Source of the DNA: Bacteroidota bacterium
GTDB taxonomy: Bacteria; Bacteroidota; Bacteroidia; Sphingobacteriales; Sphingobacteriaceae
Reading direction: 5' to 3'
Assembly: GCA_037033465.1 (NCBI GenBank)
Contig: JAZBLX010000002.1
Span: 109,299-173,298 of the forward strand
Length of the DNA stretch: 64,000 bases
The notes under the pieces are model-generated. The model saw only the letters and a program-made list of their open reading frames with translations. It did not search any database and was not told the DNA's origin. Shown here one piece after another: positions 10,357-61,909 of the stretch. The position numbers and the translations under genes are program-made. Numbering within the stretch: position 1 is the first letter of the stretch; every line of letters starts with the position of its first letter.

Positions 10357-10510
10357 TGAGTAGTGAGTGGTAAGTCTTACGTAATAAGTTTTAAGTAATA
10401 TGTATTGACTTTATACATTTTTATTTTCTATTTCCTGTTTTCTATTCCCTGCTTTCCATCCCCTGCTTTCCATTCCCTATTTTCTACTTCCTATTCCCTA
10501 TTCTGTTTCT
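10357..10510 (-). repeat. Heptamer-phased degenerate tandem repeat, 22 consecutive 7-nt units
   Basis: Plus strand reads TGAGTAG TGAGTGG TAAGTCT TACGTAA TAAGTTT TAAGTAA TATGTAT TGACTTT ATACATT TTTATTT TCTATTT CCTGTTT TCTATTC CCTGCTT TCCATCC CCTGCTT TCCATTC CCTATTT TCTACTT CCTATTC CCTATTC TGTTTCT. On the sense (minus) strand it starts at the stop codon of the 90-aa gene as GGAATAGG-type purine words. Confidence 0.8.
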
Positions 10511-10782
10511 CAAAAAACTTTATAAGCGAAGAAAATAAGTGCACAAAGAAAAGTAGCGGCTAAAATACCCCTTCCAATATTTTCTTTATTGAATTTAAAG
10601 AAATACTGCATAATGTAAGCATTCACGGCAATTCCACCGATATATAATAAATCTGCCTTTGCCAGTGATGCAACATGATGAATAATAAACCAGGCGATAG
10701 CACATAGCGTAGCCGGGGATAATAAACCGATCCACAGACCAATCCACACGGAATTATTTAGCTTCCTTAAGCGATCCTGCAT
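10510..10782 (-). CDS. Small integral membrane protein (about 3 TM), function unknown
   Basis: 90 aa and hydrophobic (WIGLWIGLLSPATLCAIAWFII..., ILAATFLCALIFFAY). Tightly packed, 5 nt after surE. Confidence 0.6.
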   Translation of the reverse strand: MQDRLRKLNNSVWIGLWIGLLSPATLCAIAWFIIHHVASLAKADLLYIGGIAVNAYIMQYFFKFNKENIGRGILAATFLCALIFFAYKVF

Positions 10783-10787
10783 TTTTT

Positions 10788-11630
10788 TTATCCTAAATTG
10801 ATTCCGTCTGGCGCAGAAACCTTATTCGCTTTATCTGCCTTTCCTATACCATTGGCATCAAAATTCCAGCTGCTTAAGGTTTGAATAGCATGATGCGCAG
10901 TTAAATCAAACTGTACCGGAACAATAGAAACATAACCATGTTCAAGCGCCCAAACATCAGTATCTTCTCCGTGATCGAAGTTTTCAAAAACGCCTGTTAA
11001 CCAATAATACGGACGGTTATAGGGATCTGTCCGCTCATCGAACTCTTCCATCCATTTGGCATTAGCCTGACGACAGATTTTAATTCCTTTTAAATTTCCA
11101 CCTTTAGGAAAATTAACATTTAACAAGGTTCCTGTTGGTAAGCCATTGGCCAGCACCTCTTCGCAGATGTTTTTAATGTATTTTTTGGTATGGCTAAAAT
11201 CAGCATCAGCTGCAAAATCATCCATCGAAAACCCGATAGATGGCATTTTTTCAATTGCGCCTTCCACCGCAGCAGACATGGTGCCGGAATAAAGCACATT
11301 GATTGAATTATTTAATCCATGGTTAATACCAGAAACACATAAATCTGGCTTTTTACCTTTAAAAATTTTATTCACAGCAATTTTCACACAATCTACTGGT
11401 GTACCACTGCACTTGTACATTTCCACGCCCTCATACAGTACAACCTTATCAAAACGGATAGGCTTACCTATGGTAATGGCATGGCCCATCCCGCTTTGCG
11501 GACTATCCGGAGCCACTACTACTACATTGCCGATTTCCTGCATTACCTCCATCAGGTTTTTAATACCAGTGGCTGTAATTCCATCATCATTGACTACTAA
11601 AATATTAGGTTTAGAACTTTGCTTTGTCAT
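10788..11630 (-). CDS. surE: 5'/3'-nucleotidase SurE
   Basis: ILVVNDDGI...GINHG..N....YSGT motifs. I take the start at the internal ATG (MTKQSSKPNILVVNDDG) rather than the track start at 11660. Confidence 0.9.
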   Translation of the reverse strand: MTKQSSKPNILVVNDDGITATGIKNLMEVMQEIGNVVVVAPDSPQSGMGHAITIGKPIRFDKVVLYEGVEMYKCSGTPVDCVKIAVNKIFKGKKPDLCVSGINHGLNNSINVLYSGTMSAAVEGAIEKMPSIGFSMDDFAADADFSHTKKYIKNICEEVLANGLPTGTLLNVNFPKGGNLKGIKICRQANAKWMEEFDERTDPYNRPYYWLTGVFENFDHGEDTDVWALEHGYVSIVPVQFDLTAHHAIQTLSSWNFDANGIGKADKANKVSAPDGINLG

Positions 11631-11838
11631 ATGTACAAAAATACGGATTATTAAATTCAAGGCACAATATACCCTGGTTTAATATCTTATTTTCATTAAA
11701 TCTGCCTCTTTTATTTCCGTTTTGTAAAAAGCATTTCATTCGATAACAGAAAGCATATATATTTGGGTAGAAATGAGGCTGATATCTCAGCATTACGCTT
11801 GTGGAAATGCACTTCATTTATAAACCAAAAACAAATCA

Positions 11839-14772
11839 ATGAAAATCAAACTATTTACTTTAGCTTGTTTTCTAATTGCGGGTACAGTTGCACAGGCACA
11901 AAATACCTATCAATGGAAAACAGGATCCTCTGGTGGCTATAGCTACAAATTCGTAACAAACGACCCTACAAAAACCCGTTTTTATACGCTAAAAAATGGC
12001 TTAACAGTTATTTTATCTCAAAATAACAAAGAGCCAAATATTGTATATAAAATGGCGGTAAGGGCAGGAAGTAATACCGACCCACGAACCAATACGGGTT
12101 TAGCACATTATTTAGAGCATTTGTTGTTTAAGGGAACGGATAAATTCGGAACATTAAACTATGCAAAAGAAAAGCCACTACTAGATAAAATTGAAGCACT
12201 TTACGAAACGTATATTAAAACAACCGACCCCCTAAAACGGAAGGAAATTTATGCTGAGATTGATAAAACTTCAGGGGAAGCCTCAAATTATTCTATTGCA
12301 AATGAGTACGATAAAATGATGAAATCAATCGGTAGCAGTTCAACAAATGCACATACTTCTGTTGAAGAAACCGTTTATGAAGAAGATCTTCCATCAAATG
12401 CCATTGATAAATTCTTATCGGTTCAGGCAGAACGTTTCCGCTCACCGGTGTTCCGGATTTTCCATACCGAACTGGAAGCCGTGTACGAAGAAAAAAACAT
12501 TGGTATGGATAACGATGGCCGCAAAATGTATGAGAAAATGCTTAATGCATTATTCCCTACACACAATTATGGTCAGCAAACTACAATCGGTACAATAGAA
12601 CACCTTAAAAACCCTTCTCTGGTAGAAATCAGGAAATATTACAACAAATATTATGTACCAAACAATATGGCTTTGATTATGTCTGGCGATATTAATTACG
12701 ACGACCTTATTAAAAAAGTGGACAAGGATTTTTCATACATGGTTTCCAAACCATTAGCGCTGTATAATCCAGCGGCAGAAAAACCACTTACTCAGGTACA
12801 AAAGGTTGATATTTATGGTCCGAGTGCAGAAAATTTATATGTAGCCTACCGTGGTTTTGCACAAAATTCCCGTCAAAGCTTATTATTGGATTTAATTGGA
12901 AGCATTTTATCTAACGGCAAAGCAGGTTTGATGGATATTAACATCAACAAGCAACAAAAAATGTTACGTGCAAATGCAGGTTACAACCAGATGAAAGATT
13001 ACGGAATTTTCATTCTATCTGGTTCGCCTAAAGCCGGACAAAGCTTAGAAGAAGCGCAAAAATTATTATTAGAACAGGTTGATTTACTTAAAAAAGGTGA
13101 GTTTGATGAAAGCCTGATTAAAGCAACTGTAGCGAATATTAAATTAGGAGAATTACAGGGTTTCGACAACAATGATGTACGTGCAGATTATACCATGACG
13201 GCTTTTATTCAAAACCGCGGAAATGAATGGGATAAAATGCTCTCCTCAACCGATGCCATGGGTAAGGTAACGAAAAAAGAAATTGTAGATTTTGCCAACA
13301 AATTCTTCATTAATAATTATGTTTCTGTTTTCAAACATAAAGGTGAAGATAAAAGCATCCTAAAAGTTGAAAAACCAATTATTACGGCCGTTAAAACCAA
13401 CACCAACGAAGTTTCTCCATTTACAAGAACTGTTATTGCTGCACCGGTAAAACCGATTGCACCTAAGTTCCTAGATTATACCAAAGATCTTAATTTTGGC
13501 AAGGCTGGCATCGCCGATGTAATCTCCGTTCAAAATAATGAGAATGGAATTTTCCGCATGAGCTACCGTTTTGAAATGGGTTCTTACAATTACAAACTTT
13601 TACCTTACGCCGCTCAATATCTTGCTTTTTTAAGTACTGATAAATATTCTGCGGAAGATGTCAGCAAAGCTTTTTATAACATCGCTTGCAGCTATAGCGT
13701 AAATGTAGGAAACGATGTAACCACAATAGCTGTTTCAGGATTACAGGAAAACTTTGATAAAGCGCTGGCTCTGGTAGAAGACGTATTGGCCAACTGTAAG
13801 CCTAATGAAAAGGCGCTGGAAGATTTGAAAGGCAGGATTTTAAAATCGAGAGAAAATGCGAAATTAAATAAGTCATCTATTTTAGGTGGTTTGATGAGTT
13901 ATGCCCAATATGGCACAGATAACCCATTCAATTATGGCTTAACGAACGATGAGATCAAAAACATGAAATCATCTGATTTAATTTACCTGTTGCATAACTT
14001 AACCAATTACCAACACACCATCACCTATTATGGCCCTAAAAACATAACAGCTTTATCTGATGATATTGTTAAAGTTCATCGTTTAGCCAGCGAGTTTACT
14101 CCGATAGCACCGATGAAGAAATTTGTCTACACTAAAACAGATTCAAACAAGGTGTATTTCGCGGATTATGATATGGTGCAGGCTGAAATTCGTTGGGTAA
14201 GAAACGGCGGGTTATATGATCCTGCAAACTCAGCAAAAATCGGCTTATTTAATAATTATTTTGGTGGTGGCATGGGCTCTATTGTTTTCCAAACCATCCG
14301 CGAATCTAAAGCATTGGCTTATTCTACTTTCGCGGTATACTCTAGTCCGAATACCAAAGAAAAAGAAAATACGGTGGTAGCTTATGTGGGTACGCAAGCT
14401 GATAAAATGAATGATGCAGTTGCGGGAATGAATGAGTTGCTAAATACTTTGCCAGAATCCGACAAGTCTTTCGCCCTTTCAAAAACCAATTCCTTAAATG
14501 GTTTAGAAACATCACGCATCACAAAAGATGGTATTATTGCAAGTTACCTTGCCGACAAAAAATTAGGTTATGATCATGACTCCAGAATTGATGAATATGC
14601 TAACCTTAAACCATTAACTTTTGCTGATATCAATACTTTTCACCACGATAATTTATCTACCAAGCCATACAGCTATTGTGTTGTTGCTTCAGAGAAAAAA
14701 ATTAACATGGCAGATTTGGCAAAATTTGGCCCGGTTACTAAGTTAACTTTAGAGCAGATTTTCGGATACTAA
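11839..14772 (+). CDS. M16-family (insulinase/pitrilysin-like) zinc peptidase, secreted, double-length
   Basis: 977 aa with a signal peptide and the inverted zinc motif HYLEHLLF (HxxEH). Confidence 0.85.
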   Translation: MKIKLFTLACFLIAGTVAQAQNTYQWKTGSSGGYSYKFVTNDPTKTRFYTLKNGLTVILSQNNKEPNIVYKMAVRAGSNTDPRTNTGLAHYLEHLLFKGTDKFGTLNYAKEKPLLDKIEALYETYIKTTDPLKRKEIYAEIDKTSGEASNYSIANEYDKMMKSIGSSSTNAHTSVEETVYEEDLPSNAIDKFLSVQAERFRSPVFRIFHTELEAVYEEKNIGMDNDGRKMYEKMLNALFPTHNYGQQTTIGTIEHLKNPSLVEIRKYYNKYYVPNNMALIMSGDINYDDLIKKVDKDFSYMVSKPLALYNPAAEKPLTQVQKVDIYGPSAENLYVAYRGFAQNSRQSLLLDLIGSILSNGKAGLMDININKQQKMLRANAGYNQMKDYGIFILSGSPKAGQSLEEAQKLLLEQVDLLKKGEFDESLIKATVANIKLGELQGFDNNDVRADYTMTAFIQNRGNEWDKMLSSTDAMGKVTKKEIVDFANKFFINNYVSVFKHKGEDKSILKVEKPIITAVKTNTNEVSPFTRTVIAAPVKPIAPKFLDYTKDLNFGKAGIADVISVQNNENGIFRMSYRFEMGSYNYKLLPYAAQYLAFLSTDKYSAEDVSKAFYNIACSYSVNVGNDVTTIAVSGLQENFDKALALVEDVLANCKPNEKALEDLKGRILKSRENAKLNKSSILGGLMSYAQYGTDNPFNYGLTNDEIKNMKSSDLIYLLHNLTNYQHTITYYGPKNITALSDDIVKVHRLASEFTPIAPMKKFVYTKTDSNKVYFADYDMVQAEIRWVRNGGLYDPANSAKIGLFNNYFGGGMGSIVFQTIRESKALAYSTFAVYSSPNTKEKENTVVAYVGTQADKMNDAVAGMNELLNTLPESDKSFALSKTNSLNGLETSRITKDGIIASYLADKKLGYDHDSRIDEYANLKPLTFADINTFHHDNLSTKPYSYCVVASEKKINMADLAKFGPVTKLTLEQIFGY

Positions 14773-14778
14773 AAGAAG

Positions 14779-14862
14779 GAAAGATGAAAGCTCGAAGCTA
14801 AAAGACTAAAGCTGAAAGCGAGGTTTAGCGCAAGTGGAAGACGATAAACGCGAGACGAAAAA
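14779..14862 (+). repeat. Heptamer-phased purine-rich repeat starting just after the stop codon
   Basis: GAAAGAT GAAAGCT CGAAGCT AAAAGAC TAAAGCT GAAAGCG AGGTTTA GCGCAAG TGGAAGA CGATAAA CGCGAGA CGAAAAA. The xGAAG/AAAG word recurs at exact 7-nt spacing six times. Confidence 0.75.
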
Positions 14863-14865
14863 TAA

Positions 14866-14899
14866 AAAGCGATTTCTGGAAACAGGAATCGCTTTTTTT
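14866..14899. terminator. Bidirectional intrinsic terminator between convergent genes
   Basis: AAAGCGATT(T)C pairs with GAATCGCTTT. It is flanked by an A-run and a T-run. Confidence 0.8.
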
Positions 14900-14910
14900 G
14901 TGGTGCTAGT

Positions 14911-15960: not shown

Positions 15961-16374
15961 AAAATTATTTCAAACTGTATCATTAATAACAAAACTGGAT
16001 GCAAAAGTTTAGTTGCATTTTTAAAATTTTAAAGAAATTAAATGTAAGCGATCTTAGCCAGATTCCATTTTAATATGCTTAATAGAAATTCTTGATCACA
16101 AAATTGAATAGAAAATGAATTTTCCTGCTTTCTTTTTATGAAATTTTCTTTCTTTTTATTTCCAGATATCCCCCTGATCTCAAACCAGTAATGTTATTAC
16201 GCAATTCCTTTCATAAAAAAACTACTTAAAACAACTCCTAGCTTAAAATAATAGATATTAAATGTTAAATAATACAGAGTTTTTACTCTTTATATGTTTA
16301 TATGTTTTTTTTGAGTAAATTAAACTGTCATTCTTGAACAAGGACTGATTATCATCAACTAAACTAAACAATTA

Positions 16375-19300
16375 ATGAAAAAACTACTACTTAGTATGGT
16401 TTTAACTTTCGGATTAATTTCATTTGCTTTCGCACAAAGCAAAGTAGTTAGCGGCAAAGTTACTTCTGGCACTTCTGGTCCAATTCCGGGTGTGAGCGTG
16501 TTTGTAAAAGGATCACCAGGTACCATCACGCAAAGTGATGCAGCAGGTAATTACAAATTAAACGTTCCGAATGATGCAAAAACACTCGTTTTTAGTTTCA
16601 TCGGTTACACCACTTTAGAAATCCCTATCACTGGCACCTCCATTAATGCCAATCTTAAAGAAGAAAACACTACCCTCTCGGATGTGGTAGTGGTGGGTTA
16701 TGGTACGCAGAACAAGCGAGACGTTACGGGGTCAGTCGCTTCGGTGAAATCAAAAGACTTAGAGAACCTCCCGGTAACCAGTTTTGAACAAGCCCTGCAA
16801 GGTAAAGCAGCTGGTGTCCAAATTTCAGCTCAAAACGGTAAACTTGGCCAGGGAATCACCGTTCGGGTACGTGGGGCAGCTTCAGTAACTGCTGGCAGCG
16901 AGCCACTGTACATTGTAGACGGAATTCCCATTACATCTGGAGATTTTTCCAGCACTACGGCTCCAACAAGTGCTTTAGCGGATTTAAATACTAATGACAT
17001 TGAATCTATTGAAGTTTTAAAAGACGCATCTGCATCTGCTATTTATGGAGCAAGAGCATCCAATGGAGTTGTTTTAATCACTACAAAACAGGGTAAAGCC
17101 GGCAAAACACTTATTCAGTTCAATGCCCTTGGAGGAATCAGCACTCCTTCGAATCACAGAGATTTTTTAAATGCAGAACAATATGTTCAACTTATCAGAA
17201 GAGCGGGAGTTGGTCGTGCACAGGATGATTTTGATAACACAACGGATTATGCAACGCTGCAAGAAGCACTTGATGATTATAGCTCAATAGTGGAGGGCAG
17301 ACTTAATCGTTATTCGGCAGGTAATAATGATTATCAAACCTATAAAGTAAATACTAATTGGGAACGAGAATCATTTCAGAATAATCCGGTAACCCAACAA
17401 TATGATTTGAACCTGACCGGAGGCAATGAAAAAACCAAGTTCTATATGGGCGGACAAGCTTTAGATCAAAAAGGCATCATCGTAGGAAATAGTTATAAAC
17501 GTTATAGTGGCAGATTAAACTTAACGAACAAAGTGACCGATTTCCTGGAAGTTGGGATTAACTTAAACTTTTCAAATAGTATCAACAATCGATTATCAAA
17601 TGATAATGCCTTTTCAAGTCCGCTACAATCGGTAGCCTTATCACCTATTACCCCCTTTATCGATCCAAGATCAGGTTTAATTAGTGGAACCCTGCCAGGA
17701 TCGGCCTCTAATTATCCGGTGTATTACAACCCATTTATCGGAATTGACAATTCATTTTATAAAGCAACAGTTTATCGTACCATTGGAAAAGCTTTTTCGA
17801 ACGTAAACATTGCAAAAGGTTTAAAATTCAGTACAGACTTCTCTATTGATAACTTAAACCAAAACGAAGAGAGCTATTATGGTTCCTTGACTTTTAGAAA
17901 TACAGGAACATCAAACGGAGACGGAGAGAATATCTCTACTTTTGTAATTAATGCAAACACCAATAATTTCTTTAGCTACAATACAACAATAGGTAAGAGT
18001 AGTTTTGATGCTATTTTAGGAACGAGTTACCAAAAATCTACTACAAAATATAGCACTATAGAAGGTCAGGATTTTCCAAGTGATGCCTATATAAAATTAG
18101 GTTCAGCTGCGACAAAGGTTATTGCAACAAGTAATGAAAGCGCTTTTAGTTTCCTTTCTTATTTTTTTAGAGCCAATTACAAATACAACGACCGCTATTT
18201 GGTTGGTTTTAGTGTAAGAGCAGATGGCTCATCCCGCTTTGGAGAAAATCATAGATATGGATATTTCCCTGCCGGATCTTTGGCTTGGATTGCTTCTGAA
18301 GAGGATTTCCTTAAACAGAGTGAAACCATCAGTTTATTAAAATTAAGAGCCAGTTACGGTTTAACCGGTAACGCGGAAATTGGGAATTACGCTGCCAGAG
18401 GATTATTTAGTGGAACAGGTGCTTATGGCGGTTCAGCGGGGCAGATTCCATCAAGAATTGCAAACCCGGATTTAACCTGGGAGAAGACCAAACAGCTTGA
18501 TTTAGGCTTGGACTTTGGTATACTGAAAAACAGAATTACTGGTACTTTCGATTTCTATCAAAAAAACACTACTGACTTACTGTTAAATGTTCCGATACCC
18601 CAAACAACCGGTTTTGCCACTATCACCCAGAACTTAGGCAAGTTAAAGAATACCGGATATGAATTGGGAATAAATTCAGAAAACTTTGTAGGCGAATTCA
18701 AATGGTCTACTGCAATAACAGCAGCAATTAATAATAATAAAATCACTGATCTTGGAGGGCAGGTGTTAAACACCAATGAAATCAATGCGGCAATTGCTGG
18801 GCAACCCATTGGTGTTTTCTATTTACCTGAATATGCAGGTGTAGACGCTGCAAATGGAGATGCGCTTTACTATAAAAACATCACACTTGCTGATGGAAAT
18901 GTTGACAGAACTACGACAAAAAATATTAACGAAGCGCAAAGAATATTTGCTGGCAACCCGAACCCGAAATATACCTTCGGAATAAACAATACCTTTTCTT
19001 ATAAAAACTTTGATTTAGGCGTGTTTTTCCAAGGCGTTTCTGGAAACAAAATTTATAACGCCGGTGGTCAGTACATGAGTGCAAATGGCTCCAACGGTTA
19101 TGATAACCAAACGGTTGACCAGATGGAATACTGGGATAAGCCCGGAGATATTACGATGGTACCAGAACCTCGTTTAGGTCTTGGAAATGGCGTTGGTAAC
19201 TCCACAAGATATATATCAGATGGAAATTACATTCGCTTAAAAACTTTAACACTTGGTTACACTTTCCCGACGGCAATTTTAACCAAAATCAAATTAAGTA

Positions 19301-23305: not shown

Positions 23306-23488
23306 ATGGCAAAAAAAGGTAACAGAGTTCAGGTTATTTTAGAATGTACTGAACATAAAGAAAGTGGCATGCCAGGTATGTCTAGATATATTTCTACCAA
23401 AAACCGTAAAAACACAACCGAGCGTTTAGAATTGAAAAAATTCAATCCAGTGTTGAGAAAAGTAACCGTACATAAAGAAATTAAATAG
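23306..23488 (+). CDS. rpmG: 50S ribosomal protein L33
   Basis: [17 protein letters not shown]......[24 protein letters not shown] is canonical L33. Confidence 0.93.
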
Positions 23489-23559
23489 TTGAATGATAGA
23501 TTGACCGATTGATTGAATTTATTTCAATCCTTCCAACATTCTCTAACTCAATCATTAAA
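23489..23559 (+). repeat. Heptamer-phased imperfect hairpin element in the rpmG-DUF4295 spacer
   Basis: TGAATGA TAGATTG ACCGATT GATTGAA TTTATTT CAATCCT TCCAACA TTCTCTA ACTCAAT CATTAAA. The central perfect 7-bp stem is GATTGAA (23511-17) / TTCAATC (23523-29). Confidence 0.6.
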
Positions 23560-23570
23560 AACATAAGAAC

Positions 23571-23726
23571 ATGGCAAAGAAAGTAGTTGCGACCCTTAAA
23601 ACAGGTAGTGGTAAAGAATATTCGAAAGTAATTACAATGGTAAAATCACCAAAAACTGGTGCTTACTCATTCAAAGAACTTATCGTTCATAACGACCACG
23701 TAAAAGATGCTATTGCATCTAAATAA
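23571..23726 (+). CDS. DUF4295-family small protein (conserved partner of rpmB-rpmG in Bacteroidota)
   Basis: 51-aa ORF below the track cutoff: MAKKVVATLKTGSGKEYSKVITMVKSPKTGAYSFKELIVHNDHVKDAIASK. The position after rpmG and a terminator right after it match the known synteny. Confidence 0.75.
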   Translation: MAKKVVATLKTGSGKEYSKVITMVKSPKTGAYSFKELIVHNDHVKDAIASK

Positions 23727-28836: not shown

Positions 28837-28846
28837 GTTTATAAAA

Positions 28847-28923
28847 AAGGTTTAAGGTAAAAGGTGTAAAATTTAGGGTTCAGACAATCTGCCTTAAACC
28901 CTAAACCTTACACCTTAAACAAC
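28847..28923 (-). repeat. Heptamer-phased hairpin element (AAGGTNN words / AAACCTT words)
   Basis: AAGGTTT AAGGTAA AAGGTGT AAAATTT AGGGTTC AGACAAT CTGCCTT AAACCCT AAACCTT ACACCTT AAACAAC. The arms are complementary at word level, with one unit bulged. Confidence 0.8.
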
Positions 28924-28955
28924 GCAAGTTACTATTTCTTGCGATTAATTATAAA

Positions 28956-31749: not shown

Positions 31750-32427
31750 ATGTACCTGATCAAATCACCGCTTCTGCTAAAATGGTATTATCCATCATTA
31801 CTTTGGAATAAATCCCGCACCGAAAAAGTTATTTATTTGACCTTTGACGATGGACCTATACCCAATGTTACAGATTTTGTTTTAAAAACTTTAAAAGCCT
31901 TTAACGCAAAAGCTACATTTTTTTGCATCGGTGACAATATTGTTAAGCATCCCGACGTTTACGCGAATATCTTAAATGACGGACATGCCATCGGAAACCA
32001 TACTTTTAATCATTTAAAAGGCTGGAAAACCGATGATGAAACCTATATCCAAAACACTTTAAAATGCCAGGCACTTACGCAATCAAATCTTTTTCGCCCA
32101 CCTTACGGAAGGATCAAGAAGAGTCAGATTGCGAGTCTTCAGTCCTTAGTCCTTAATCCGAAGTCAGACTTTAGATTTGAGACTCCAGACTCCAAACTCA
32201 AGACTCCAGACTCAAGACTAGACATCATCATGTGGGATGTCCTGAGTGGCGATTTTGACATCAACTTATCTCCTGAAAAATGTTATCAAAACGTGATAAA
32301 TCATACCGAAAATGGTTCGATTATCGTATTTCATGATAGCTTAAAAGCATTTGACCGATTAGCATACGCATTGCCTCGGGCATTAAAATATTTTGCAGAT
32401 AAAGGTTTCGCTTTTTCAACGTTGTAG
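31750..32427 (+). CDS. Polysaccharide deacetylase (NodB/CE4 domain) carrying an in-frame repeat insertion
   Basis: CE4 motifs LTFDDGP, GNHTFNH, RPPYG, IIMWDV and VFHDS are present. About 20 extra residues with the 7-aa repeat TPDSKLK TPDSRLD lie between RPPYG and IIMWDV. Confidence 0.8.
   Translation: MYLIKSPLLLKWYYPSLLWNKSRTEKVIYLTFDDGPIPNVTDFVLKTLKAFNAKATFFCIGDNIVKHPDVYANILNDGHAIGNHTFNHLKGWKTDDETYIQNTLKCQALTQSNLFRPPYGRIKKSQIASLQSLVLNPKSDFRFETPDSKLKTPDSRLDIIMWDVLSGDFDINLSPEKCYQNVINHTENGSIIVFHDSLKAFDRLAYALPRALKYFADKGFAFSTL
32133..32223 (+). repeat. Heptamer-phased repeat lying inside the deacetylase CDS
   Basis: GAGTCTT CAGTCCT TAGTCCT TAATCCG AAGTCAG ACTTTAG ATTTGAG ACTCCAG ACTCCAA ACTCAAG ACTCCAG ACTCAAG ACTAGAC. 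ACTCN words fall at exact 7-nt spacing six times. Left-arm AGTCYTT words complement right-arm AAGACT words. Confidence 0.8.
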
Positions 32428-32710: not shown

Positions 32711-34993
32711 ATGGCTTTTGACATAGACATGATTAAAAAGGTTTATGCAAACTTCGGCCCTCGTGTAGATGCGGCCCGTAAGATTGTTGGCAGACCTTTA
32801 ACATTATCAGAAAAAATATTATATGCTCACCTTTGGGATGGTGATCCTAGAAAAGCATTCTCTCGCGGAACGGATTATGTAGATTTCGCACCAGATCGCG
32901 TTGCAATGCAAGATGCAACGGCTCAAATGGCACTTTTGCAGTTTATGCAAGCTGGTCGTCCACAAGTAGCTGTTCCTTCTACGGTTCATTGTGATCACTT
33001 AATTACAGCTAAAGAAGGTGCATCAATAGATTTACCTCACGCCAGAACAGAAAGTGCTGAAGTTTTTGATTTCTTATCTTCTGTATCAAATAAATATGGT
33101 ATCGGTTTCTGGAAACCAGGAGCAGGTATTATTCACCAGGTAGTTTTAGAAAATTATGCTTTCCCGGGCGGAATGATGATTGGAACCGATTCACACACAG
33201 TTAATGCTGGTGGTTTGGGTATGGTTGCAATTGGTGTTGGTGGTGCGGATGCCTGTGATGTAATGGCGGGTTTACCATGGGAACTTAAATTCCCTAAGTT
33301 AATCGGTGTAAAATTAACGGGTAAATTAAACGGCTGGACTGCTGCTAAAGACGTAATTCTTAAAGTTGCCGGTATCTTAACTGTAAAAGGCGGTACGGGT
33401 GCAATTGTAGAATATTTTGGTGATGGCGCAATCAATTTAAGCTGTACTGGTAAAGGTACTATCTGTAACATGGGTGCTGAAATTGGTGCAACTACTTCTA
33501 CTTTTGGTTATGATGAGAGCATGGAACGTTATTTACGCTCTACTGATCGTAACGAAGTTGCTGACGAAGCCAACAAAATAAAAGAATATTTAACAGGTGA
33601 TAGCGAAGTTTATGCTAATCCTGAAAACTATTTCGATCAGGTTATTGAGATTGATTTAGATACATTAGAGCCCTATTTAAATGGTCCTTTCACACCAGAT
33701 TTAGCAACTCCGGTTTCTCAAATGAAAGTGGAAGCTGAGAAAAATGGCTGGCCATTAAAAGTAGAATGGGGTTTGATCGGTTCTTGTACCAACTCTTCTT
33801 ACGAAGATTTGTCAAGAGCAGCATCAATCGCTAATCAGGCTATTGCAAAAGGTTTAGTTACTAAAGCTGATTTTGGAATTAACCCGGGATCTGAGCAAGT
33901 ACGTTACACCGCAGATCGCGATGGTTTCTTAAAAACTTTCGAAGATTTAAATGCAACAATCTTTACCAATGCCTGCGGACCATGTATTGGTATGTGGGAT
34001 AGAACAGGTGCAGAAAAAGCAGAGAAAAATACGATCGTTCACTCATTCAATAGAAACTTTGCAAAACGTGCAGATGGTAATCCTAATACATTCGCATTTG
34101 TTGCTTCACCAGAAATGGTTGCGGCAATTGCAATTGCTGGTGATTTAGGTTTCAACCCACTAACAGATACGTTAACAAACGATAAAGGCGAGCAAATTAA
34201 ACTGGATCCACCTACGGGAGATGAGTTACCTACAAAAGGTTTCGCTGTAGAAGATGCAGGTTTTCAGGCACCGGCAGCTGATGGCTCATCAGTTGAGGTT
34301 TTAGTTTCTCCAACTTCTCACCGTTTACAATTGTTAGATCCATTTAAACCTTGGGAAGGCACAGACTTAACAGGTTTAAAACTTTTAATTAAAGCTAAAG
34401 GTAAGTGTACAACGGATCATATTTCTATGGCTGGTCCTTGGTTAAAATTCCGTGGTCACCTGGATAACATTTCTAACAACATGTTAATAGGTGCCGTGAA
34501 TTACTTCAACGACAAAACCGATAACGTTAAAAATGAATTAACCGGCGAATACGGACCGGTTCCTGCTACTCAGCGTGATTACAAAGCAGCTGGTTTTGGT
34601 TCTATCGTAATTGGCGATGAAAACTATGGTGAAGGTTCATCTCGTGAGCATGCTGCTATGGAACCTCGTCACCTAGGCGTTCGTGCGGTATTGGTAAAGT
34701 CTTTTGCCCGTATTCATGAAACCAACCTGAAAAAACAAGGGATGCTTGGTTTAACCTTCGCTGATAAAGATGATTATGATAAAATCTTAGAAGGAGATAT
34801 TGTTGATATTTTAGGCCTGACAGAATTTGCGCCAGACAAACCACTTACTTTGGTATTACACCATGCAGATGGCTCTGAAGAGCAATTCCCTGTTAACCAC
34901 AGTTATAATGCACAACAAATCGACTGGTTCAAAGCCGGTGGTGCGTTAAACATTATCAGAGCTGAAGCTGCTGCAAAAGCGGCGGTTTTATAG
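32711..34993 (+). CDS. acnA: Aconitate hydratase (monomeric, about 760 aa type)
   Basis: Fe-S ligand regions GTDSHT, GSCTNSS and NACGPCIG, and the C-terminal swivel domain. Confidence 0.9.
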
Positions 34994-35028
34994 AATAAAG
35001 ATAAAGGAGCAAGGAATAAAGACTGTAA
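34994..35028 (+). repeat. Short purine-rich heptamer block directly after the acnA stop
   Basis: AATAAAG ATAAAGG AGCAAGG AATAAAG ACTGTAA, five units. Confidence 0.45.
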
Positions 35029-35061
35029 GTTGACTATTCATAGTTCCTTATCACATCAAGA

Positions 35062-39267: not shown

Positions 39268-39741
39268 ATGAAGATCACTTTAATAGCCATTGGCAAAACC
39301 GAGGATAAGTATTTGATTGAGGGGATTGATAAGTACATTAACCGCCTGAAACATTATATCAATTTCAGTTTTCTGCCAATTCCTGATGTCAAAAATGTAA
39401 AAAACCTGAGTGAAGCACAGCAAAAAAATAAAGAGGCAGAGCTTTTGCACAAACAAATTAATAATGGTGATGTTGTAATTTTATTGGATGAAAAGGGCAA
39501 AAAGTACAGTTCGGTAGATTTTTCAAACTACTTAAATAAGCAAATGATCGGAAGTGTGCAGCACCTCATTTTTATTATCGGAGGGCCTTACGGTTTCGAT
39601 GATAGCATTTATAAAAGGGCGAATGGTTTAATCTCATTGTCTGACATGACTTTCTCCCATCAAATGATCAGGTTATTTTTTGTTGAGCAACTGTATCGAG
39701 GATTCAGTATTTTAAAGGGCGAACCTTATCATCATGCGTAA
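39268..39741 (+). CDS. rlmH: 23S rRNA (pseudouridine1915-N3)-methyltransferase RlmH
   Basis: 157 aa SPOUT fold. IGGPYG, and the C-terminal HQ..R....EQ.YR......G..YH. Confidence 0.9.
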   Translation: MKITLIAIGKTEDKYLIEGIDKYINRLKHYINFSFLPIPDVKNVKNLSEAQQKNKEAELLHKQINNGDVVILLDEKGKKYSSVDFSNYLNKQMIGSVQHLIFIIGGPYGFDDSIYKRANGLISLSDMTFSHQMIRLFFVEQLYRGFSILKGEPYHHA

Positions 39742-39783
39742 GATGGATGAAGGGGAATGGAAGATGGGAAATAGGAAATGGAA
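39742..39783 (+). repeat. Purine-rich heptamer block directly after the rlmH stop
   Basis: GATGGAT GAAGGGG AATGGAA GATGGGA AATAGGA AATGGAA. Same GGAAAT/GGAATGG word family as the kdp and lpxB spacers. Confidence 0.65.
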
Positions 39784-39837
39784 TTTTGACAATTGATATG
39801 GATTTACTATTCATTCATCATCATTAAATAAAAAGAT

Positions 39838-39960
39838 ATGTTAGATAAATATAAACGCCAATACCGATATAGAAGTAATCAAAGTGGCAACAACAAAATG
39901 TTATGGATTAGCATCATCATTTCACTGGTGATTGTGGTGATTCTTTACTATTTCTTTTAA
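39838..39960 (+). CDS. Possible small membrane protein (40 aa, or 20 aa from the internal ATG)
   Basis: MLDKYKRQYRYRSNQSGNNKMLWISIIISLVIVVILYYFF: a basic N-terminus plus one TM helix. It ends 3 nt before a strong terminator. No homology evidence is available. Confidence 0.3.
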   Translation: MLDKYKRQYRYRSNQSGNNKMLWISIIISLVIVVILYYFF

Positions 39961-40556: not shown

Positions 40557-40568
40557 AATATTTTTTTT

Positions 40569-40708
40569 GAGATGTGAGATTTTAGAAAAAGAAGTGTTAA
40601 TCACTTACAATTAATACCCAAATCTATTATCTAATTAATTAAATGAGAAAGAGATTCAAATCGGAGAATAATATCTCAAATCTAATGTCTCACATCTCCA
40701 TCTTTTTA
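40569..40708 (-). repeat. Heptamer-phased element with an 11-bp perfect terminal inverted repeat (ppiase-DUF5606 spacer)
   Basis: GAGATGTGAGA (40569-79) and TCTCACATCTC (40688-98). Units include ...CCAAATC TATTATC TAATTAA TTAAATG AGAAAGA GATTCAA ATCGGAG AATAATA TCTCAAA TCTAATG TCTCACA TCTCCAT. It abuts the PPIase stop codon. Confidence 0.7.
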
Positions 40709-53375: not shown

Positions 53376-53386
53376 GGTAAATTAGT

Positions 53387-55614: not shown

Positions 55615-55670
55615 TATTAAAAATTTCGTTATATATTTTAACATATCCTAACAATTATTTTTTAAAACTT

Positions 55671-57251: not shown

Positions 57252-57289
57252 TTTATCATAATATTTTAACCTATCCTCCGAAACGATAA

Positions 57290-57318
57290 AAACCCTTCCA
57301 AAACGGAAGGGTTTTTTT
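57290..57318 (+). terminator. Intrinsic terminator after the M1 peptidase gene
   Basis: CCCTTCC (57293-99) pairs with GGAAGGG (57305-11), followed by T7. Confidence 0.88.
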
Positions 57319-57524
57319 ATGCCTAAAATTTCGATTGCTACCAGAAACAAGAACAAACTGCACCTAATCAACCAGTTACAAAAAAGCAGGTATCAGCGGC
57401 ACAAGAGTTGGCAACAGGCATTTCATAAATCAATAAGTTATGACAATTATCCTGTTTCTCCTTTTAATCCTGCTCTGCTGGGCAACTTACCTCTCTATCG
57501 ATTGGTTCGAAAAAATCTAAGAAA

Positions 57525-57602
57525 ATGTTAGCACTATCTATCATCGCAATCGCCGTATTTATCTATATGATTTACGTGTTGATTAAACCAGAAAAATTTT
57601 AA
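57525..57602 (+). CDS. kdpF: K+-transporting ATPase subunit F
   Basis: 25-aa ORF below the track cutoff: MLALSIIAIAVFIYMIYVLIKPEKF. One TM helix, the typical KdpF C-terminus, and a position upstream of kdpA. Confidence 0.7.
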   Translation: MLALSIIAIAVFIYMIYVLIKPEKF

Positions 57603-57607
57603 CACAA

Positions 57608-57768
57608 AAATGGAAAGAGAAATTGAAAGCCGGAAATTGAAAATAGGAAACGGATAATAGCCAATAAGAAAACTAAGAAATGGCTCAACACCTATATTCC
57701 ATTTTCTAAAATCTACTTCCTCTTCCCTGAAATTTATTTCCTACATCAAAAATCTGCTTCTCTTTAAA
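57608..57768 (+). repeat. Heptamer-phased purine-arm/pyrimidine-arm element in the kdpF-kdpA spacer (about 23 units)
   Basis: AAATGGA AAGAGAA ATTGAAA GCCGGAA ATTGAAA ATAGGAA ACGGATA ATAGCCA ATAAGAA AACTAAG AAATGGC | TCAACAC CTATATT CCATTTT CTAAAAT CTACTTC CTCTTCC CTGAAAT TTATTTC CTACATC AAAAATC TGCTTCT. Confidence 0.8.
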
Positions 57769-57779
57769 AAACAAAAACA

Positions 57780-59498
57780 ATGAACACTGAATTAACCGGC
57801 ATTATTGCCACCTTTCTGCTCACCTTAGTTATAGCCATCCCTTTGGGGAAATATTTGGCAAAGGTTTTTGCAGGAGAAAAAGTCTGGACAGACTTTTTAA
57901 AACCATTAGAAAACATTATCTATAAGCTTTCAGGCATCAATGTGAAGGAACAGATGAACTGGAAACAACAATTAAAAGCATTGCTCACCCTTAACCTATT
58001 GTGGCTGATTTATGGTTTTTTTGTTTTAATTTTTCAAGATAAACTGCCTTTTAATCCCGATGGAAATCCAGGCATGACGCCCGATCTGGCTTTCAATACG
58101 ATCGTTAGTTTTGTAGCCAATTGTAACCTTCAACACTATTCTGGCGAAAGTGGCGTAAGCTACCTTACCCAGCAATTCGTACTGATGTTTCTACAATTTG
58201 TAAGTGCTGCTACCGGGATTGCGGCAGCAGTGGTTTTATTTAAAGCTTTTAGAGATAAAACAGCTACACAGCTTGGTAACTTCTGGGAGTTTTTTGTTAA
58301 AGCAATTACCCGCTTATTATTGCCTCTATCAATAGTGATTGCCTTAATATTAACATTTAATGGTACACCAGCAAGTTATGAAGGCAAAGACCAGTTCATT
58401 TCTATGCAGGGCGATACCGTAAATGTTTCCCGCGGTCCGGCGGCACAGCTAATTGCCATAAAACATTTGGGAACGAATGGTGGTGGGTATTTTGGTGCCA
58501 ATTCTGCCCACCCATTCGAAAACCCAAGCTACTTAACCAATATGGTGGAAATGATTGCACAGACCATCATTCCGATTGCCATGATCATCGCTTTTGGCTA
58601 CTTCATCCGCAGAAAAAAATTAGCATGGACCATCTTTGGGGTGATGACGATTGGCTTATTTATGCTGATGATTCCAGCCATCACTTCCGAGTTAGCTGGA
58701 AATCCAGCCTTGGCAAAAATGGGAATCTCACAAGCAACAGGCGCGATGGAGGGGAAAGAAGTACGATTCGGTCCTGCGGCAACGGCTTACTGGAGCACAT
58801 TAACGACCGTAATTTCTACAGGTTCGGTGAATGGGATGCACGACAGTACTATGCCATTAACGGGCTTATGGCAACTGCTCGCCATGATGATTAATGCCAT
58901 TTACGGTGGCTGCGGTGTTGGTTTGCTAAATTATTTTGTCTACCTGATTATTGCCGTATTCATTTCAGGATTAATGGTGGGTAGAACCCCAGAATTTTTA
59001 GGGCATAAAGTAGAAGCAAGAGAAATCAAAATTGCCGCCATCATCACTTTGTTAAGTCCATTTTTAATCTTAGCGGGAACAGCAATCGCCACTTATGTTT
59101 TTACTAATCATGGCGATGCAGCCTGGGCGGTTCAACCGAAAGCCTGGTTAAACAATCGAGCCTTTCATGGCTTCTCCGAAATGCTTTACGAGGTTACTTC
59201 TTCAAATGCAAACAACGGCTCTGGTTTTGAAGGGCTCGGCGACAATAACGTATTTTGGAACGTGTTGACAGGTGTAATTATCTTCCTCGGACGCTTCCTG
59301 CCTATTATCGGTCCGGTGGCAATTGCAGGTTTGTTAGGAAGCAAAAAATTCATTCCTGAATCGGCTGGTACTTTAAAAACCGACACGAAAACTTTTGCAC
59401 TGATGACATTCGCCGTGATCCTGGTATTAACCGCATTGTCTTATTTCCCTGCGCTCGCCTTAGGCCCGATTGCAGAATATTTTACTATGCTTAAATAA
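57780..59498 (+). CDS. kdpA: K+-transporting ATPase subunit A
   Basis: 572 aa polytopic protein with KdpA selectivity-filter-like GTNGGG. Confidence 0.93.
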   Translation: MNTELTGIIATFLLTLVIAIPLGKYLAKVFAGEKVWTDFLKPLENIIYKLSGINVKEQMNWKQQLKALLTLNLLWLIYGFFVLIFQDKLPFNPDGNPGMTPDLAFNTIVSFVANCNLQHYSGESGVSYLTQQFVLMFLQFVSAATGIAAAVVLFKAFRDKTATQLGNFWEFFVKAITRLLLPLSIVIALILTFNGTPASYEGKDQFISMQGDTVNVSRGPAAQLIAIKHLGTNGGGYFGANSAHPFENPSYLTNMVEMIAQTIIPIAMIIAFGYFIRRKKLAWTIFGVMTIGLFMLMIPAITSELAGNPALAKMGISQATGAMEGKEVRFGPAATAYWSTLTTVISTGSVNGMHDSTMPLTGLWQLLAMMINAIYGGCGVGLLNYFVYLIIAVFISGLMVGRTPEFLGHKVEAREIKIAAIITLLSPFLILAGTAIATYVFTNHGDAAWAVQPKAWLNNRAFHGFSEMLYEVTSSNANNGSGFEGLGDNNVFWNVLTGVIIFLGRFLPIIGPVAIAGLLGSKKFIPESAGTLKTDTKTFALMTFAVILVLTALSYFPALALGPIAEYFTMLK

Positions 59499-59517
59499 AT
59501 TCTGAAGCCGAGTTAAG

Positions 59518-59550
59518 CTTTCTTAATCCGAGATTCTATTAAGAAAGTTT
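59518..59550 (+). other. Perfect 10-bp stem-loop followed by TTT inside the kdpA-kdpB spacer
   Basis: CTTTCTTAAT (59518-27) pairs with ATTAAGAAAG (59538-47), with a 10-nt loop. Possible attenuator or processing hairpin. Confidence 0.4.
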
Positions 59551-59572
59551 AGCCTGACCGATTTGAAAAATT

Positions 59573-59604
59573 AATCTGTGAAATCATTTTAAATCTGTGA
59601 GATC
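59573..59604 (+). repeat. Two direct copies of the AATCTGTGNAATC-type motif (orphan copy of the GxxExxY-flank motif)
   Basis: AATCTGTGAAATC (59573-85) is the exact reverse complement of GATTTCACAGATT at 24811-23. The second copy is AATCTGTGAGATC at 59592-604. Confidence 0.7.
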
Positions 59605-59619
59605 ACCTAATTAAATAAA

Positions 59620-61647
59620 ATGAAACCCAATAATAAATTGTTCGAACCTGCTTTAGTGCAAACTGCATTGAAACAATCTTTCATCAAATTAGACCCTCGG
59701 GTAATGGTTCGCAACCCGGTAATGTTTACCGTCGAAATCGGAACCCTCGTAATGGCTTATGTTACTGTTTACTCTTTCAGCCATAGCGGACAAGGTTCAC
59801 CGCTTTATAACTTCTTTATCTTTTTAATTCTGTTGCTCACTGTTCTTTTTGCGAATTTTGCAGAGGCTATTGCCGAAGCAAGAGGTAAGGCGCAAGCTGA
59901 TAGCTTACGCAAAACAAGAGAGGAAACACCTGCCAAAGTACTTTTGGAGAATGGCTCATTTGAAATCCGTTCATCAAACTCGTTAAAAAAGGGCGATATC
60001 TTTATTTGCGAAACCGGCGATACCATCCCAACAGATGGAGAAATTATCGAAGGAATTGCAACGATCGATGAATCTGCCATCACCGGTGAATCTGCGCCGG
60101 TAATTCGTGAGTCTGGTGGCGATAAATCATCGGTTACCGGCGGTACAAAGGTATTGTCTGATGAAATCAAAGTGCAGGTAAGCACGGCTCCGGGTGAAAG
60201 CTTTCTCGATAAAATGATTGCTTTGGTGGAAGGTGCGTCACGTCAGAAAACGCCAAATGAAATTGCCTTAACCATCCTGCTGGCAAGTTTTACTCTGGTA
60301 TTTATTATCGTTTGCGTAACGCTGAAACCATTCGCCGATTACGCCAATACCCCCATTACCATTGCTGCGTTAATTTCATTATTCGTATGCTTAATTCCAA
60401 CCACAATTGGTGGCTTATTATCTGCCATCGGGATTGCCGGAATGGACAGGGCTTTAAGAGCGAATGTAATTACCAAATCAGGTAAAGCGGTAGAAACAGC
60501 TGGCGATATTGACGTGTTGCTTTTGGATAAAACCGGAACCATCACCATCGGAAACCGGAAAGCAACCAACTTCTACCCAACAGCAGGTGTGATGATCAAA
60601 AACTTTACCGATGCCTGTGTATTAAGTTCTTTGGCTGATGAAACCCCAGAGGGAAAATCAATCATTGAATTAGCTGCCGAGCAGGGTTTTAAAAGTGCCG
60701 GAACTCCCAATGGCTCTACATTTATCAAATTTACCGCAGAAACCCGCTCCAGCGGATTAGATACCCTTGATGGCAGGCGAATTAGAAAAGGTGCTTTTGA
60801 TTCGATCAGAAACATCGTTGAGAAAGCAGGAAATATTTTCCCATCAGATATTGAGGACCATGTTAAGGCTATTGCTACCAACGGCGGAACGCCACTAGTG
60901 GTTTCAGAAAATGAAAAAGCCTTAGGCGTAATCGAGCTGCAGGATATTATCAAACCAGGCATCAGCGAACGGTTCGAACGCTTAAGAAAAATGGGCGTAA
61001 AAACCGTAATGGTTACTGGCGATAATCCGTTAACAGCAAAATACATTGCCGAAAAAGCTGGTGTAGATGATTTTATTGCAGAGGCAAAGCCTGAAGATAA
61101 AATGAACTACATTAAAGATGAACAGGCTTTAGGAAAATTGGTCGCCATGATGGGCGATGGTACAAATGATGCACCGGCACTTGCACAAGCTGATGTTGGC
61201 GTGGCCATGAACAGTGGAACGCAGGCGGCAAAAGAAGCAGGAAACATGGTCGATTTAGATAACGACCCCACCAAGTTAATCGAAATTGTAGAAATTGGTA
61301 AACAGCTGTTAATTACCAGGGGAACGCTCACTACTTTCTCCATTGCCAATGATGTAGCTAAATACTTTGCCATTGTTCCGGCACTATTTATTGCCTCCAT
61401 TCCAGCATTGCAACGTTTGAACATCATGGGTTTACATTCACCTGAAAGCGCAATTATGTCGGCGGTTATTTTCAATGCAATCATCATTCCGATCTTAATT
61501 CCATTGGCTTTGAAAGGTGTGGCTTATAAACCTATCGGTGCTACTGCTTTACTTCGAAGAAACTTATTTATCTATGGAATCGGCGGTGTTGTGGCGCCAT
61601 TTATAGGCATCAAACTAATTGACCTCGTCATTGGATTATTTGTTTAA
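59620..61647 (+). CDS. kdpB: K+-transporting P-type ATPase subunit B
   Basis: 675 aa. DKTGTIT phosphorylation motif, [12 protein letters not shown]. Confidence 0.95.
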
Positions 61648-61650
61648 AAC

Positions 61651-61909
61651 AGGAAACAGACAAGAGGGGAAATGGGAAATAGATAGAAGGAAATGAAAAA
61701 TAGTAAGTGGGGGAATAGGAAATAGACAAATGGAAAAATAAGAAATAGGTAACGAACAGATCAAGATAGAAGGACAAAAGGATGAAAACAATATAAATAC
61801 CTCCCATTAAATCCATTTCCTAACATCTGATTCCTAATATCTATTTCCTATTCCCTTAAACCCATTTCCTAATACCTATACCTATTTCCTAACACCTATT
61901 TCCTAAAAT
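61651..61909 (+). repeat. Largest heptamer-phased element (about 37 units) in the kdpB-kdpC spacer
   Basis: The purine arm reads GGGAAAT GGGAAAT AGATAGA AGGAAAT GAAAAAT AGTAAGT ..GGAAT AGGAAAT AGACAAA... In the pyrimidine arm ATTTCCT recurs at 61815, 61843, 61864, 61884 and 61898. There is a 16-nt perfect inverted core at 61711-26 / 61840-55. Confidence 0.85.

Follow-up and report, generated by a model that had tools for sequence, protein, structure and literature searches.

Heptamer arrays in the window

The 64-kb stretch analysed here (64,000 nucleotides (nt) of contig JAZBLX010000002.1 from a bacterium of the Sphingobacteriaceae, hereafter the window) carries, mostly between its genes, tandem arrays built of 7-nt units, or heptamers. 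The genes flanking these elements are ordinary housekeeping genes, namely lpxB, surE, gpsA, rlmH, kdpFABC and those of an M16 peptidase, a HlyD-family protein, aconitase and a cyclophilin. A first-pass annotation, made from the sequence alone, had named ten such loci, placed each of them next to a stop codon with its G/A/T-rich arm first on the sense strand, and read this arrangement as a sign of RNA-level function or origin. The ten loci have been designated A to J and are as follows.

Element A, 10347..10509, minus strand: fills the entire 163-nt spacer from an open reading frame (ORF) of 90 amino acids (aa; stop 10510-10512) to lpxB (start 10346)
Element A, sense-strand order, minus strand: (GGRAATA/GAAAGCA)n at 10415-10509, then (ACTYACY)n at 10351-10413; arms not complementary
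Element B, 14773..14824, plus strand: single (GAAAGCT)n array beginning at the M16 peptidase stop codon; sense strand with G>C
Element C, 23488..23572, plus strand: spacer from rpmG to a DUF4295 gene; G/T-rich arm, then C/T-rich arm, in 8-nt phase (GATTGANN)
Element D, 28837..28955, minus strand: spacer from the HlyD-family gene to gpsA; conserved small hairpin, (GGTTTAA)n/(TTAAACC)n hairpin, UUUUUU, AUG
Element E, 32125..32235, plus strand: (AGTCCTT)n, then (AGACTCC)n, in frame inside a polysaccharide deacetylase gene (PF01522)
Element F, 34991..35033, plus strand: short (AATAAAG/ATAAAGG)n array overlapping the aconitase stop; hairpin and intrinsic terminator downstream
Element G, 39739..39801, plus strand: (GGAAATR/GATGGRA)n array from the rlmH stop codon
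Element H, 40557..40708, minus strand: fills the entire spacer from the cyclophilin PPIase gene to the DUF5606 gene; word GAGATNT
Element I, 57603..57779, plus strand: spacer from kdpF (stop 57600-57602) to kdpA; (GGAAATT/GAAAATA)n arm, then (TTTCCTN)n arm; lag-14 signal
Element J, 61648..61945, plus strand: kdpB-kdpC spacer; ~17-unit (GGAAATA)n arm, non-periodic centre, ~16-unit (TATTTCC/TACCTAT)n arm

The periodicity of the window has been evaluated by self-matching in a sliding 42-nt frame. In this DNA of 38% G+C the peak values were 0.79 for lag 7 and 0.86 for lag 14, and all other lags from 2 to 16 remained at or below 0.62, so that only lags 7 and 14 stand out; the high-scoring stretches are the very loci named beforehand. 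Tandem Repeats Finder likewise gave a period of 7 or 14 at most of these loci, with a unit identity of 61-88% within the arrays, which are thus degenerate. Each locus was further compared with dinucleotide-preserving shuffles. Not one of the 300 shuffles equalled the period-7 score of A (10347-10509), B (14773-14862), D (28837-28955), E (32125-32235; score 0.91), F (34994-35040) or G (39742-39800), giving P≤0.0033 for each, and the segments of H (40557-40708), I (57602-57779) and J (61648-61945), scored as a whole at lags 7, 14 and 21, showed z values of 2.8, 6.0 and 9.2, respectively. Nine of the ten named loci are therefore head-to-tail 7-nt repeats beyond chance. The tenth, given as 23489-23559 in the first-pass annotation, fails at period 7 when tested as element C (23488-23572; P=0.93) and fits period 8 best, as evident from scores of 0.57 and 0.75 for periods 7 and 8 and of 0.25 and 0.43 for the lag-7 and lag-8 families. 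The reported range of 5 to about 37 units also needs amendment at its upper end, J being not one 37-unit array but arms of about 17 and 16 units around a non-periodic centre.

The GGAAATA type of word occurs at A, G, I and J, and five other words are used elsewhere in the same 64 kb. A core motif common to all words was sought, and nothing beyond A/T-richness with 1-3 G was found. Six elements (A, D, E, H, I and J) have paired arms; the outer stem of H is formed by GGAGAUGUGAGA.. and ..UCUCACAUCUC. Regarding placement, the asserted start within a few nucleotides of a stop codon is accurate for A, B, F, G and J (0-3 nt) and approximate for H and I (about 7-10 nt); it does not apply to D, where the conserved small hairpin occupies the first ~34 nt after the stop, or to E, which lies in a coding sequence. 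The C-rich arms stop 4-37 nt short of the next start codon, which indicates that most elements simply occupy the whole spacer. Element B is followed by a separate bidirectional terminator hairpin at ~14864-14897.

Two sets of related DNA, independent of each other, were scanned with a tract detector based on a column consensus over six units (score ≥0.74). The first comprised 80 aconitase-anchored Bacteroidota loci and the window (1.43 Mb), and the second 80 kdpC-anchored metagenome loci (0.63 Mb, i.e. 629 kb). The tracts found were distributed by period as follows.

Aconitase-anchored loci and window: period 7, 41 tracts; period 8, 7; period 10, 0; period 11, 2; period 13, 1
kdpC-anchored loci: period 7, 37 tracts; period 8, 4; periods 10, 11 and 13, 0 each

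Period 7 thus exceeds any other period counted (41 and 37 tracts against at most 7). Of the 41 period-7 tracts in the first set, 38 lie between genes, though about 86% of the DNA is coding by rough gene calls; over the 2 Mb of related DNA the intergenic share is about 90%. Their occurrence is patchy by taxon: tracts are present in Pedobacter, Daejeonella, Mucilaginibacter arboris, some Sphingobacterium-like bins and several Chitinophagaceae, and none were found in the 22 kb sampled from each of Pedobacter antarcticus, Pedobacter sp. MR2016-24 and the Flavobacterium genomes. The closest genome in the aconitase-anchored scan is that of Pedobacter sp. MR2016-19 (L013; aconitase identity 95%). The window itself represents a Pedobacter-like strain of metagenomic origin, contigs identical to it being present in three metagenome samples.

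Several side observations were made during these scans. Period 8 is the second commonest tract class in the related loci, with five lag-8 tracts in L068 (Crocinitomicaceae) as an example. A weak further period-7 candidate (TTAAAAT, AATAGAT, ATTAAAT, GTTAAAT) lies at 16225-16300 of the window, in a divergent spacer upstream of the gene starting at 16375; no shuffle matched its score, but it is very A/T-rich. The bins of L049, L041 and L067 are labelled Bordetella parapertussis and Leptospirales and hold a Bacteroidota-type aconitase with 78-80% identity to the window protein; these contigs are probably mis-binned or mislabelled. The mechanical ORF list places the DUF5606 start at GTG 40604, within H, and eight relatives indicate ATG 40556 (MNLRGI...); metagenome contig L085 is annotated with a longer DUF5606 product, probably wrongly. 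Arrays of this kind can thus mislead gene callers, and they are likely to break short-read assemblies. Two small genes next to elements fall under usual ORF-length cut-offs, namely a conserved 40-aa membrane-protein ORF downstream of G (39838-39960), present also in L013, and the 25-aa kdpF next to I (57525-57602).

Strand polarity and folding

The order of the arms on the sense strand, G/A/T-rich first, has been borne out and is also seen in a wider set of 57 tracts from related loci (2 Mb). On the sense strand G exceeds C in 23 of 28 stop-adjacent tracts, and C exceeds G in 26 of 29 start-adjacent ones; these counts take in orthologous sites and are not fully independent. Seen on the plus strand, a tract near the left flank of a spacer has G>C and one near the right flank C>G, regardless of gene orientation. 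In tract-free spacers the regions after stops are unbiased (282 with G>C and 334 with C>G), and those before starts, already G-poor, show a weaker bias (228 and 462). The polarity of the tracts is therefore real and above background composition, which as a full cause has been rejected, since it explains the start side in part and the stop side not at all. Polarity is also kept where the arms are non-complementary (A and L024) and in the single arrays (B, F and G). As a family-level pattern, the 7-nt phase, the intergenic position, the contact with gene ends and the G-rich-first order are statistically robust. Another proposed reason for C-poor arrays behind genes, the provision of stops in all three frames, was discarded as only A, B and D have such stops within 42 nt.

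That the same order holds for plus- and minus-strand genes had been put forward as evidence for a transcription-relative function. The order itself is real; however, an inverted repeat is its own reverse complement, and a two-armed element shows its G-rich arm first on both strands automatically, which makes the argument weaker than it seemed. What is informative is the switch on the sense strand from G>C behind stops to C>G ahead of starts. Enrichment inside operons, which had been suggested as a check, was not observed: of the co-directional spacers 14 in 673 carry tracts, compared with 9 in 240 convergent and 7 in 212 divergent ones.

A strand-symmetric polarity would suit a property of the duplex, such as G-quadruplexes (G4), i-motifs or cruciforms affecting replication or transcription, as proposed for the GGGAATC and GGGGAYT repeats. 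The closest published class does form G4 in vitro (PMC4692102), and the (GGGAATA)n runs of L123 and L124 hold G3 runs with 4-nt loops, as judged by eye. In the window, the only DNA so searched, no (G3+N1-12)x3 G3+ motif was found on either strand. Most of the words (AGATTTG, AAGGTTT, AGTCCTT, AATTATG) are incapable of forming G4 and yet follow the polarity rule, and words with a single G per unit keep the same polarity and placement. A DNA structure as the basis of the elements is thus considered very improbable.

The polarity has also been considered as a mark of repair. At a break in a spacer, both 3' ends might be extended by telomere-like copying of a short G-containing template and then rejoined. 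Such scars would account for the invariant convergent order of a G-rich and then a C-rich arm in any gene orientation, a pairing likewise reported in Xanthomonas (PMC4692102), and also for the unrelated words and unequal arm lengths (A and L024) and the non-repeat centre between the arms. The sense-strand bias of single arrays between stop and terminator is not predicted by this scheme, and local seeding with stepwise insertions and deletions (indels) suffices alone. To our knowledge there is neither a bacterial enzyme nor a precedent for such copying, which is a further count against an explanation that appears highly doubtful.

The claim that a complementary arm follows the first has been examined by folding. 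Significant fold z values were obtained for D (-6.6 to -7.4), J (-4.2 on the sense and -6.3 on the antisense strand) and H (-2.9), and among relatives for L043 (-13.6), L047 (-6.8) and the H-site elements of L013, L069 and L063 (about -4). A, E, G, I (sense strand), L024 and L039 do not fold significantly better than shuffles; for A the sense value is +0.4, i.e. no hairpin, and the arms of A, L024 and L039 are without any complementarity, those of A being unrelated words. Complementary arms therefore describe some of the elements and not all. Element F folds better than shuffles, but the interval tested takes in its downstream terminator hairpin. In A, E, I and J, as in 7 of 10 kdpB-kdpC elements, the antisense strand matches or surpasses the sense strand in folding, so there is no general sign of pairing tuned for the sense RNA, D being the exception. 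Optimisation of the sense RNA via G.U pairs has been rejected in view of mixed sense and antisense energies.

Element D deserves separate consideration. Its hairpin (-45 kcal mol−1) is directly followed by UUUUUU. At the same site the relatives L006, L010 and L069 have a short GC hairpin (CCCGGTTTAA..TTAAACCGGG) and a T-run just before the gpsA start, whereas in the window and L013 this T-run is preceded by (GGTTTAA)n..(TTAAACC)n, with more units in L013. Single-nucleotide differences between strains in the 3' arm exchange U and C opposite G in the sense-strand stem, i.e. G.U for G-C. Judged from this arrangement, D probably acts, like the hairpin from which it would have grown, as a terminator or attenuator. 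A consensus terminator scan flagged neither D nor the other long heptamer hairpins, although its stem and loop limits may exclude them.

These observations bear on the view that the arrays are selected RNA-level elements, whether insulating hairpins between cistrons or in 3' UTRs, terminators or attenuators, or multi-site platforms for readers of single-stranded RNA with a step of ~7 nt (cold-shock-domain or S1-type proteins). In a possible variant, the G-rich-first order would pair the C-rich, Rho-attracting arm as soon as it is transcribed. This view is favoured by the polarity above background, by D, where a strong hairpin with a U-run stands in place of the terminator-like hairpin of relatives and strain differences preserve pairing on the sense strand, and by CspB, which binds heptamer units with one protein per unit, as cited in PMC4679880. 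It is opposed by antisense folding that is as good or better for most elements, by the unstructured state of A, L024 and L039, by the lack of operon-internal enrichment, and by a search of the whole 64-kb window with Rfam 15 at gathering scores, which gave 0 matches. As a general explanation it is regarded as unlikely; individual elements, above all D with its predicted hairpin and U-run, may nevertheless have such an effect.

Length change and origin at single junctions

The comparison of close strains, with flanks 96-100% identical, shows the arrays changing in length. A 14-nt (2-unit) indel separates the window and L086 from six other strain contigs at G, a 28-nt (4-unit) indel is found between strains at A, and indels of 14 and 13 nt distinguish J from L102; the arrays of L123 and L124 differ by indels of 7 and 27 nt. 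The aconitase protein, looked up by exact sequence for strain comparison, had no record. The anticipated expansion or contraction between strains is thus seen as whole-unit differences at G, A and J. With unit number varying freely among strains, and with no signature specific to the sense RNA, the inference of RNA-level function in preference to slippage does not stand. The polarity rule, which has already been published for other phyla, is no argument against slippage, and slippage is directly visible here.

Orthologous junctions have been compared among relatives. The PPIase-DUF5606 spacer measures 2-5 nt in L006, L010 and L052 and 26 nt in L047, and 104-180 nt in the window, L013, L069, L071 and L063, where it holds heptamer arrays with differing words. 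The kdpB-kdpC spacer is 6-21 nt long in about 30 relatives and 139-312 nt long where heptamer elements sit. At the 3' end of the aconitase gene, most of 79 genomes pass directly from stop to terminator, and an array, with a different word in each case, intervenes in the window, L013, L005 and L047. Since relatives have 2-20 nt or a plain terminator hairpin at the same junctions, the arrays are lineage-specific growths and not ancestral spacers. That close relatives manage with such short spacers is also a point against the RNA-level explanation; in its favour is the fact that the same junctions bear heptamer elements of different words in several genera, most of which fold as hairpins.

Possible seeds of the arrays can be recognised at some junctions. 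At the aconitase stop a single TAGTATC is found in L010 and (TAGTATT)n in L005. The PPIase gene ends with AGATTAA or AGATTAG, next to an array of the word AGATTTG. The word GAAATAG has a similar counterpart in AAAATAGAAATC, the short ancestral spacer between kdpB and kdpC, and the ancestral stem at D, GGTTTAA/TTAAACC, matches the repeat word of D. Directly after the aconitase stop of L077 (12277-12330, a Ginsengibacter bin) stands a 9-nt tandem array of the AGTATATAA type (score 0.86), and hence array growth at stop codons is not confined to 7-nt units.

The growth of an array is not restricted to the spacers. Element E constitutes a 20-residue in-frame insertion between conserved blocks of the deacetylase (window 31750-32427; L013 5696-6373). 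In the protein alignment it is found only in the window and L013, the homologues of L006, L010, L047 and L069 having none, and its second arm is strongly diverged between the two. An array can accordingly add 20 residues to an enzyme, and in operons arrays lengthen the spacers by up to 300 nt.

Dispersal by transposition has been weighed against these data. A mobile family resembling miniature inverted-repeat transposable elements (MITE) or repetitive extragenic palindromes (REP), with heptamer-built arms and inserted into intergenic sites by a transposase, would agree with the hairpin architecture and intergenic location and with the GGAAATA word at four window loci. In L123 (686-1753) and L124 (1745-2978), modules of (GGGAATA)n, a ACAGCGTTTAG loop and (CCATTTCC)n stand in tandem and at two neighbouring junctions, sharing the loop motif; here a whole hairpin module has been duplicated, beyond single units. 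Moreover, the kdpB-kdpC spacer of L106, L110, L112, L117, L122, L127-L131, L135, L140, L156 and L159 holds unrelated REP/MITE-like palindromes of 100-170 nt, examples being TGTCATTCTGAGCGCAGCGAAG...CTTCG..CTCAGCATGACA and CGTCATTCCCGCG...GGGAATGACGA, which are true palindromes of that kind in other lineages. The junction seems to tolerate hairpin-forming insertions, which suggests a permissive site and not a required RNA element. A blastn comparison of the window elements with the window gave a longest shared match of 19 nt, or at most 2-2.5 units, with no common termini or loops; arrays at different loci are therefore not copies of one mobile element. The words vary by locus and resemble the local ancestral sequence, the arm lengths are unequal and alter by single units, and the filled and empty PPIase-DUF5606 junctions show no target-site duplication. 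On the strength of the short matches and the missing duplication, the mobile-element reading has been largely refuted for the window, and overall it is deemed extremely unlikely.

The explanation preferred here is that the heptamer arrays grow locally by slippage in transcribed spacers and are then filtered by selection on the mRNA, with at most a modest effect on expression; it is considered the probable one, though held with some reserve. According to this explanation, heptamer tandem arrays of the long simple-sequence-repeat or short tandemly repeated repetitive (STRR) type would arise in place within short transcribed spacers, and would expand and contract in 7-nt steps via slippage or unequal exchange. 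The seed, to judge from a handful of junctions, may be a local heptamer, often one that holds the stop codon, because its duplication leaves the protein unchanged; as stop codons are without C, the resulting array would be C-poor by construction. On a similarly small number of junctions, the seed may alternatively come from the two arms of an existing hairpin stem, with 7 nt taken from each, and amplification within both arms would yield complementary arrays without an inverted duplication. Selection would act as a filter by admitting no frameshifts in genes and by keeping the sense strand G-poor just before starts, and at tightly coupled junctions it would prefer pairing arms that hold stop and start close. 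Seeding and filter together would place the G-rich arm ahead of the C-rich one, as observed. Expression would probably be affected only modestly, if at all, as by REP-type intercistronic hairpins.

Several observations weigh against local growth as a complete account. The G>C on the stop side is unmatched by the composition of ordinary post-stop regions, and single arrays between stop and terminator also show it, so that seeding and a start-codon filter may be incomplete. The PPIase-DUF5606 junction has complementary arms yet no visible ancestral hairpin, and the same junction gains heptamer elements with different words in three genera. One word family, GGAAATA, dominates not only the four window loci but also many kdp loci; recurrence at one junction and dominance of one word could point to selection or a trans-acting factor over neutral growth. 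The degenerate state of the arrays implies that most of them are not actively slipping. Furthermore, the growth model gives no reason for a unit of 7 nt, and period-8 arrays also exist, as in element C. The 7-nt unit, the G>C after stops and the recurrence at the same junctions leave a small chance for a conserved RNA-level or protein-mediated mechanism.

It is conceivable, though quite improbable, that the placement rule reflects a conserved and undescribed constraint or machine acting on transcribed spacers, for instance a protein that reads single strands in heptads, or the hiding of a Rho-attracting C-rich tract with stop and start brought together, so that translation would stay coupled over long spacers. 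The rule (7-nt phase, a G-rich and C-poor arm behind the stop, a C-rich and G-poor arm ahead of the start) is independent of G4 potential, and Bacteroidota, Xanthomonas and cyanobacteria follow it with words that are unrelated. Were this reading true, the elements that recur at one junction across genera would be selected sequences and not junk. The present loci contribute strain-level evidence of change in 7-nt steps, and also junctions at which an array can be viewed next to its seed and to the ancestral state without it; they make the system suitable for testing neutral growth against function.

Comparison with known repeat classes

Enterobacterial REP sequences and bacterial interspersed mosaic elements (BIME) are transcribed hairpins within operons or after genes, tolerated wherever expression is not disturbed, and may influence mRNA stability; the present elements would work similarly. 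REP copies derive from one conserved sequence and are linked to a transposase of their own, and a 7-nt phase is absent from them. The sequence conservation between copies that marks REP/BIME is not found among the present elements, as the 19-nt limit on shared matches indicates. The two are alike in that REP-like palindromes hold the same kdpB-kdpC junction in some relatives.

The STRR heptanucleotides of cyanobacteria, reportedly described by Mazel et al. in 1990, are said to be the oldest example of the class. A genome has few STRR words, which are dispersed mostly between genes and inside operons and occur occasionally inside genes, such as that of RNase P RNA; the family is also cited in a 1997 reference by Vioque. 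Their words are C/G-rich (e.g. CCCCAGT) and almost perfectly repeated at very many loci. The window arrays resemble STRR in being tandem heptamers located mostly between genes, with one array tolerated in a gene, the deacetylase gene here; no STRR word was found in tandem in the window.

The TAACTGA direct repeats described by MacGregor in Beggiatoaceae, cyanobacteria and five Bacteroidetes (2015; PMC4679880) are intergenic, with an orientation fixed relative to the nearest start or stop. They lie mostly just upstream of starts in 2-6 perfect copies, and 1 of 170 repeat sets is indirect (PMC4679880). Other heptamer repeats were noted in spacers of Bacteroidetes, the spacers of relatives being shorter (PMC4679880). 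The present arrays are likewise intergenic heptamers oriented relative to starts and stops; unlike the TAACTGA repeats they have no single word, and paired arms are common. TAACTGA has no tandem copy in the window, its single occurrences numbering 5 in 128 kb (both strands). Heptamers are the commonest long repeat unit in bacteria and polymerase slippage is a possible cause (Mrazek et al. 2007, as cited in PMC4679880).

The closest correspondence is with the repeats reported by Rehm et al. (2015; PMC4692102), GGGAATC in Xanthomonas and GGGGA(C/T)T in Nostoc PCC 7120. These are 68-93% intergenic, lie on average 28 nt from the upstream ORF, and form 70-75 convergent pairs per Xanthomonas genome that are capable of making stem-loops (PMC4692102). 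They are G-rich on the coding strand downstream of an ORF and on the non-coding strand upstream of it, stand between housekeeping genes, and vary in length and sequence at the same junctions of close species; no function has been identified for them (PMC4692102). The window arrays share the 7-nt unit, the mostly intergenic location close to the upstream ORF and among housekeeping genes, the polarity, the convergent pairs and the variation at given junctions between close species, and their commonest word, GGAAATA/GGGAATA, resembles GGGAATC of Xanthomonas. They differ in having at least six words in 64 kb and apparently no single word for the whole genome, in being more degenerate, in their Bacteroidota host, and in divergent spacers that are not depleted in this sample. 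Neither GGGAATC nor GGGGATT occurs in tandem in the window. With none of the published words in tandem and no G4 motif in the window, the arrays have been filed under the general class and not under a word-defined family.

On the evidence of sequence comparison, then, the arrays represent, within Sphingobacteriia/Chitinophagia, the class of heptanucleotide repeats already known from Xanthomonas and cyanobacteria. What this soil lineage adds is the use of many words under one placement rule, by which the rule is separated from G-quadruplex chemistry.

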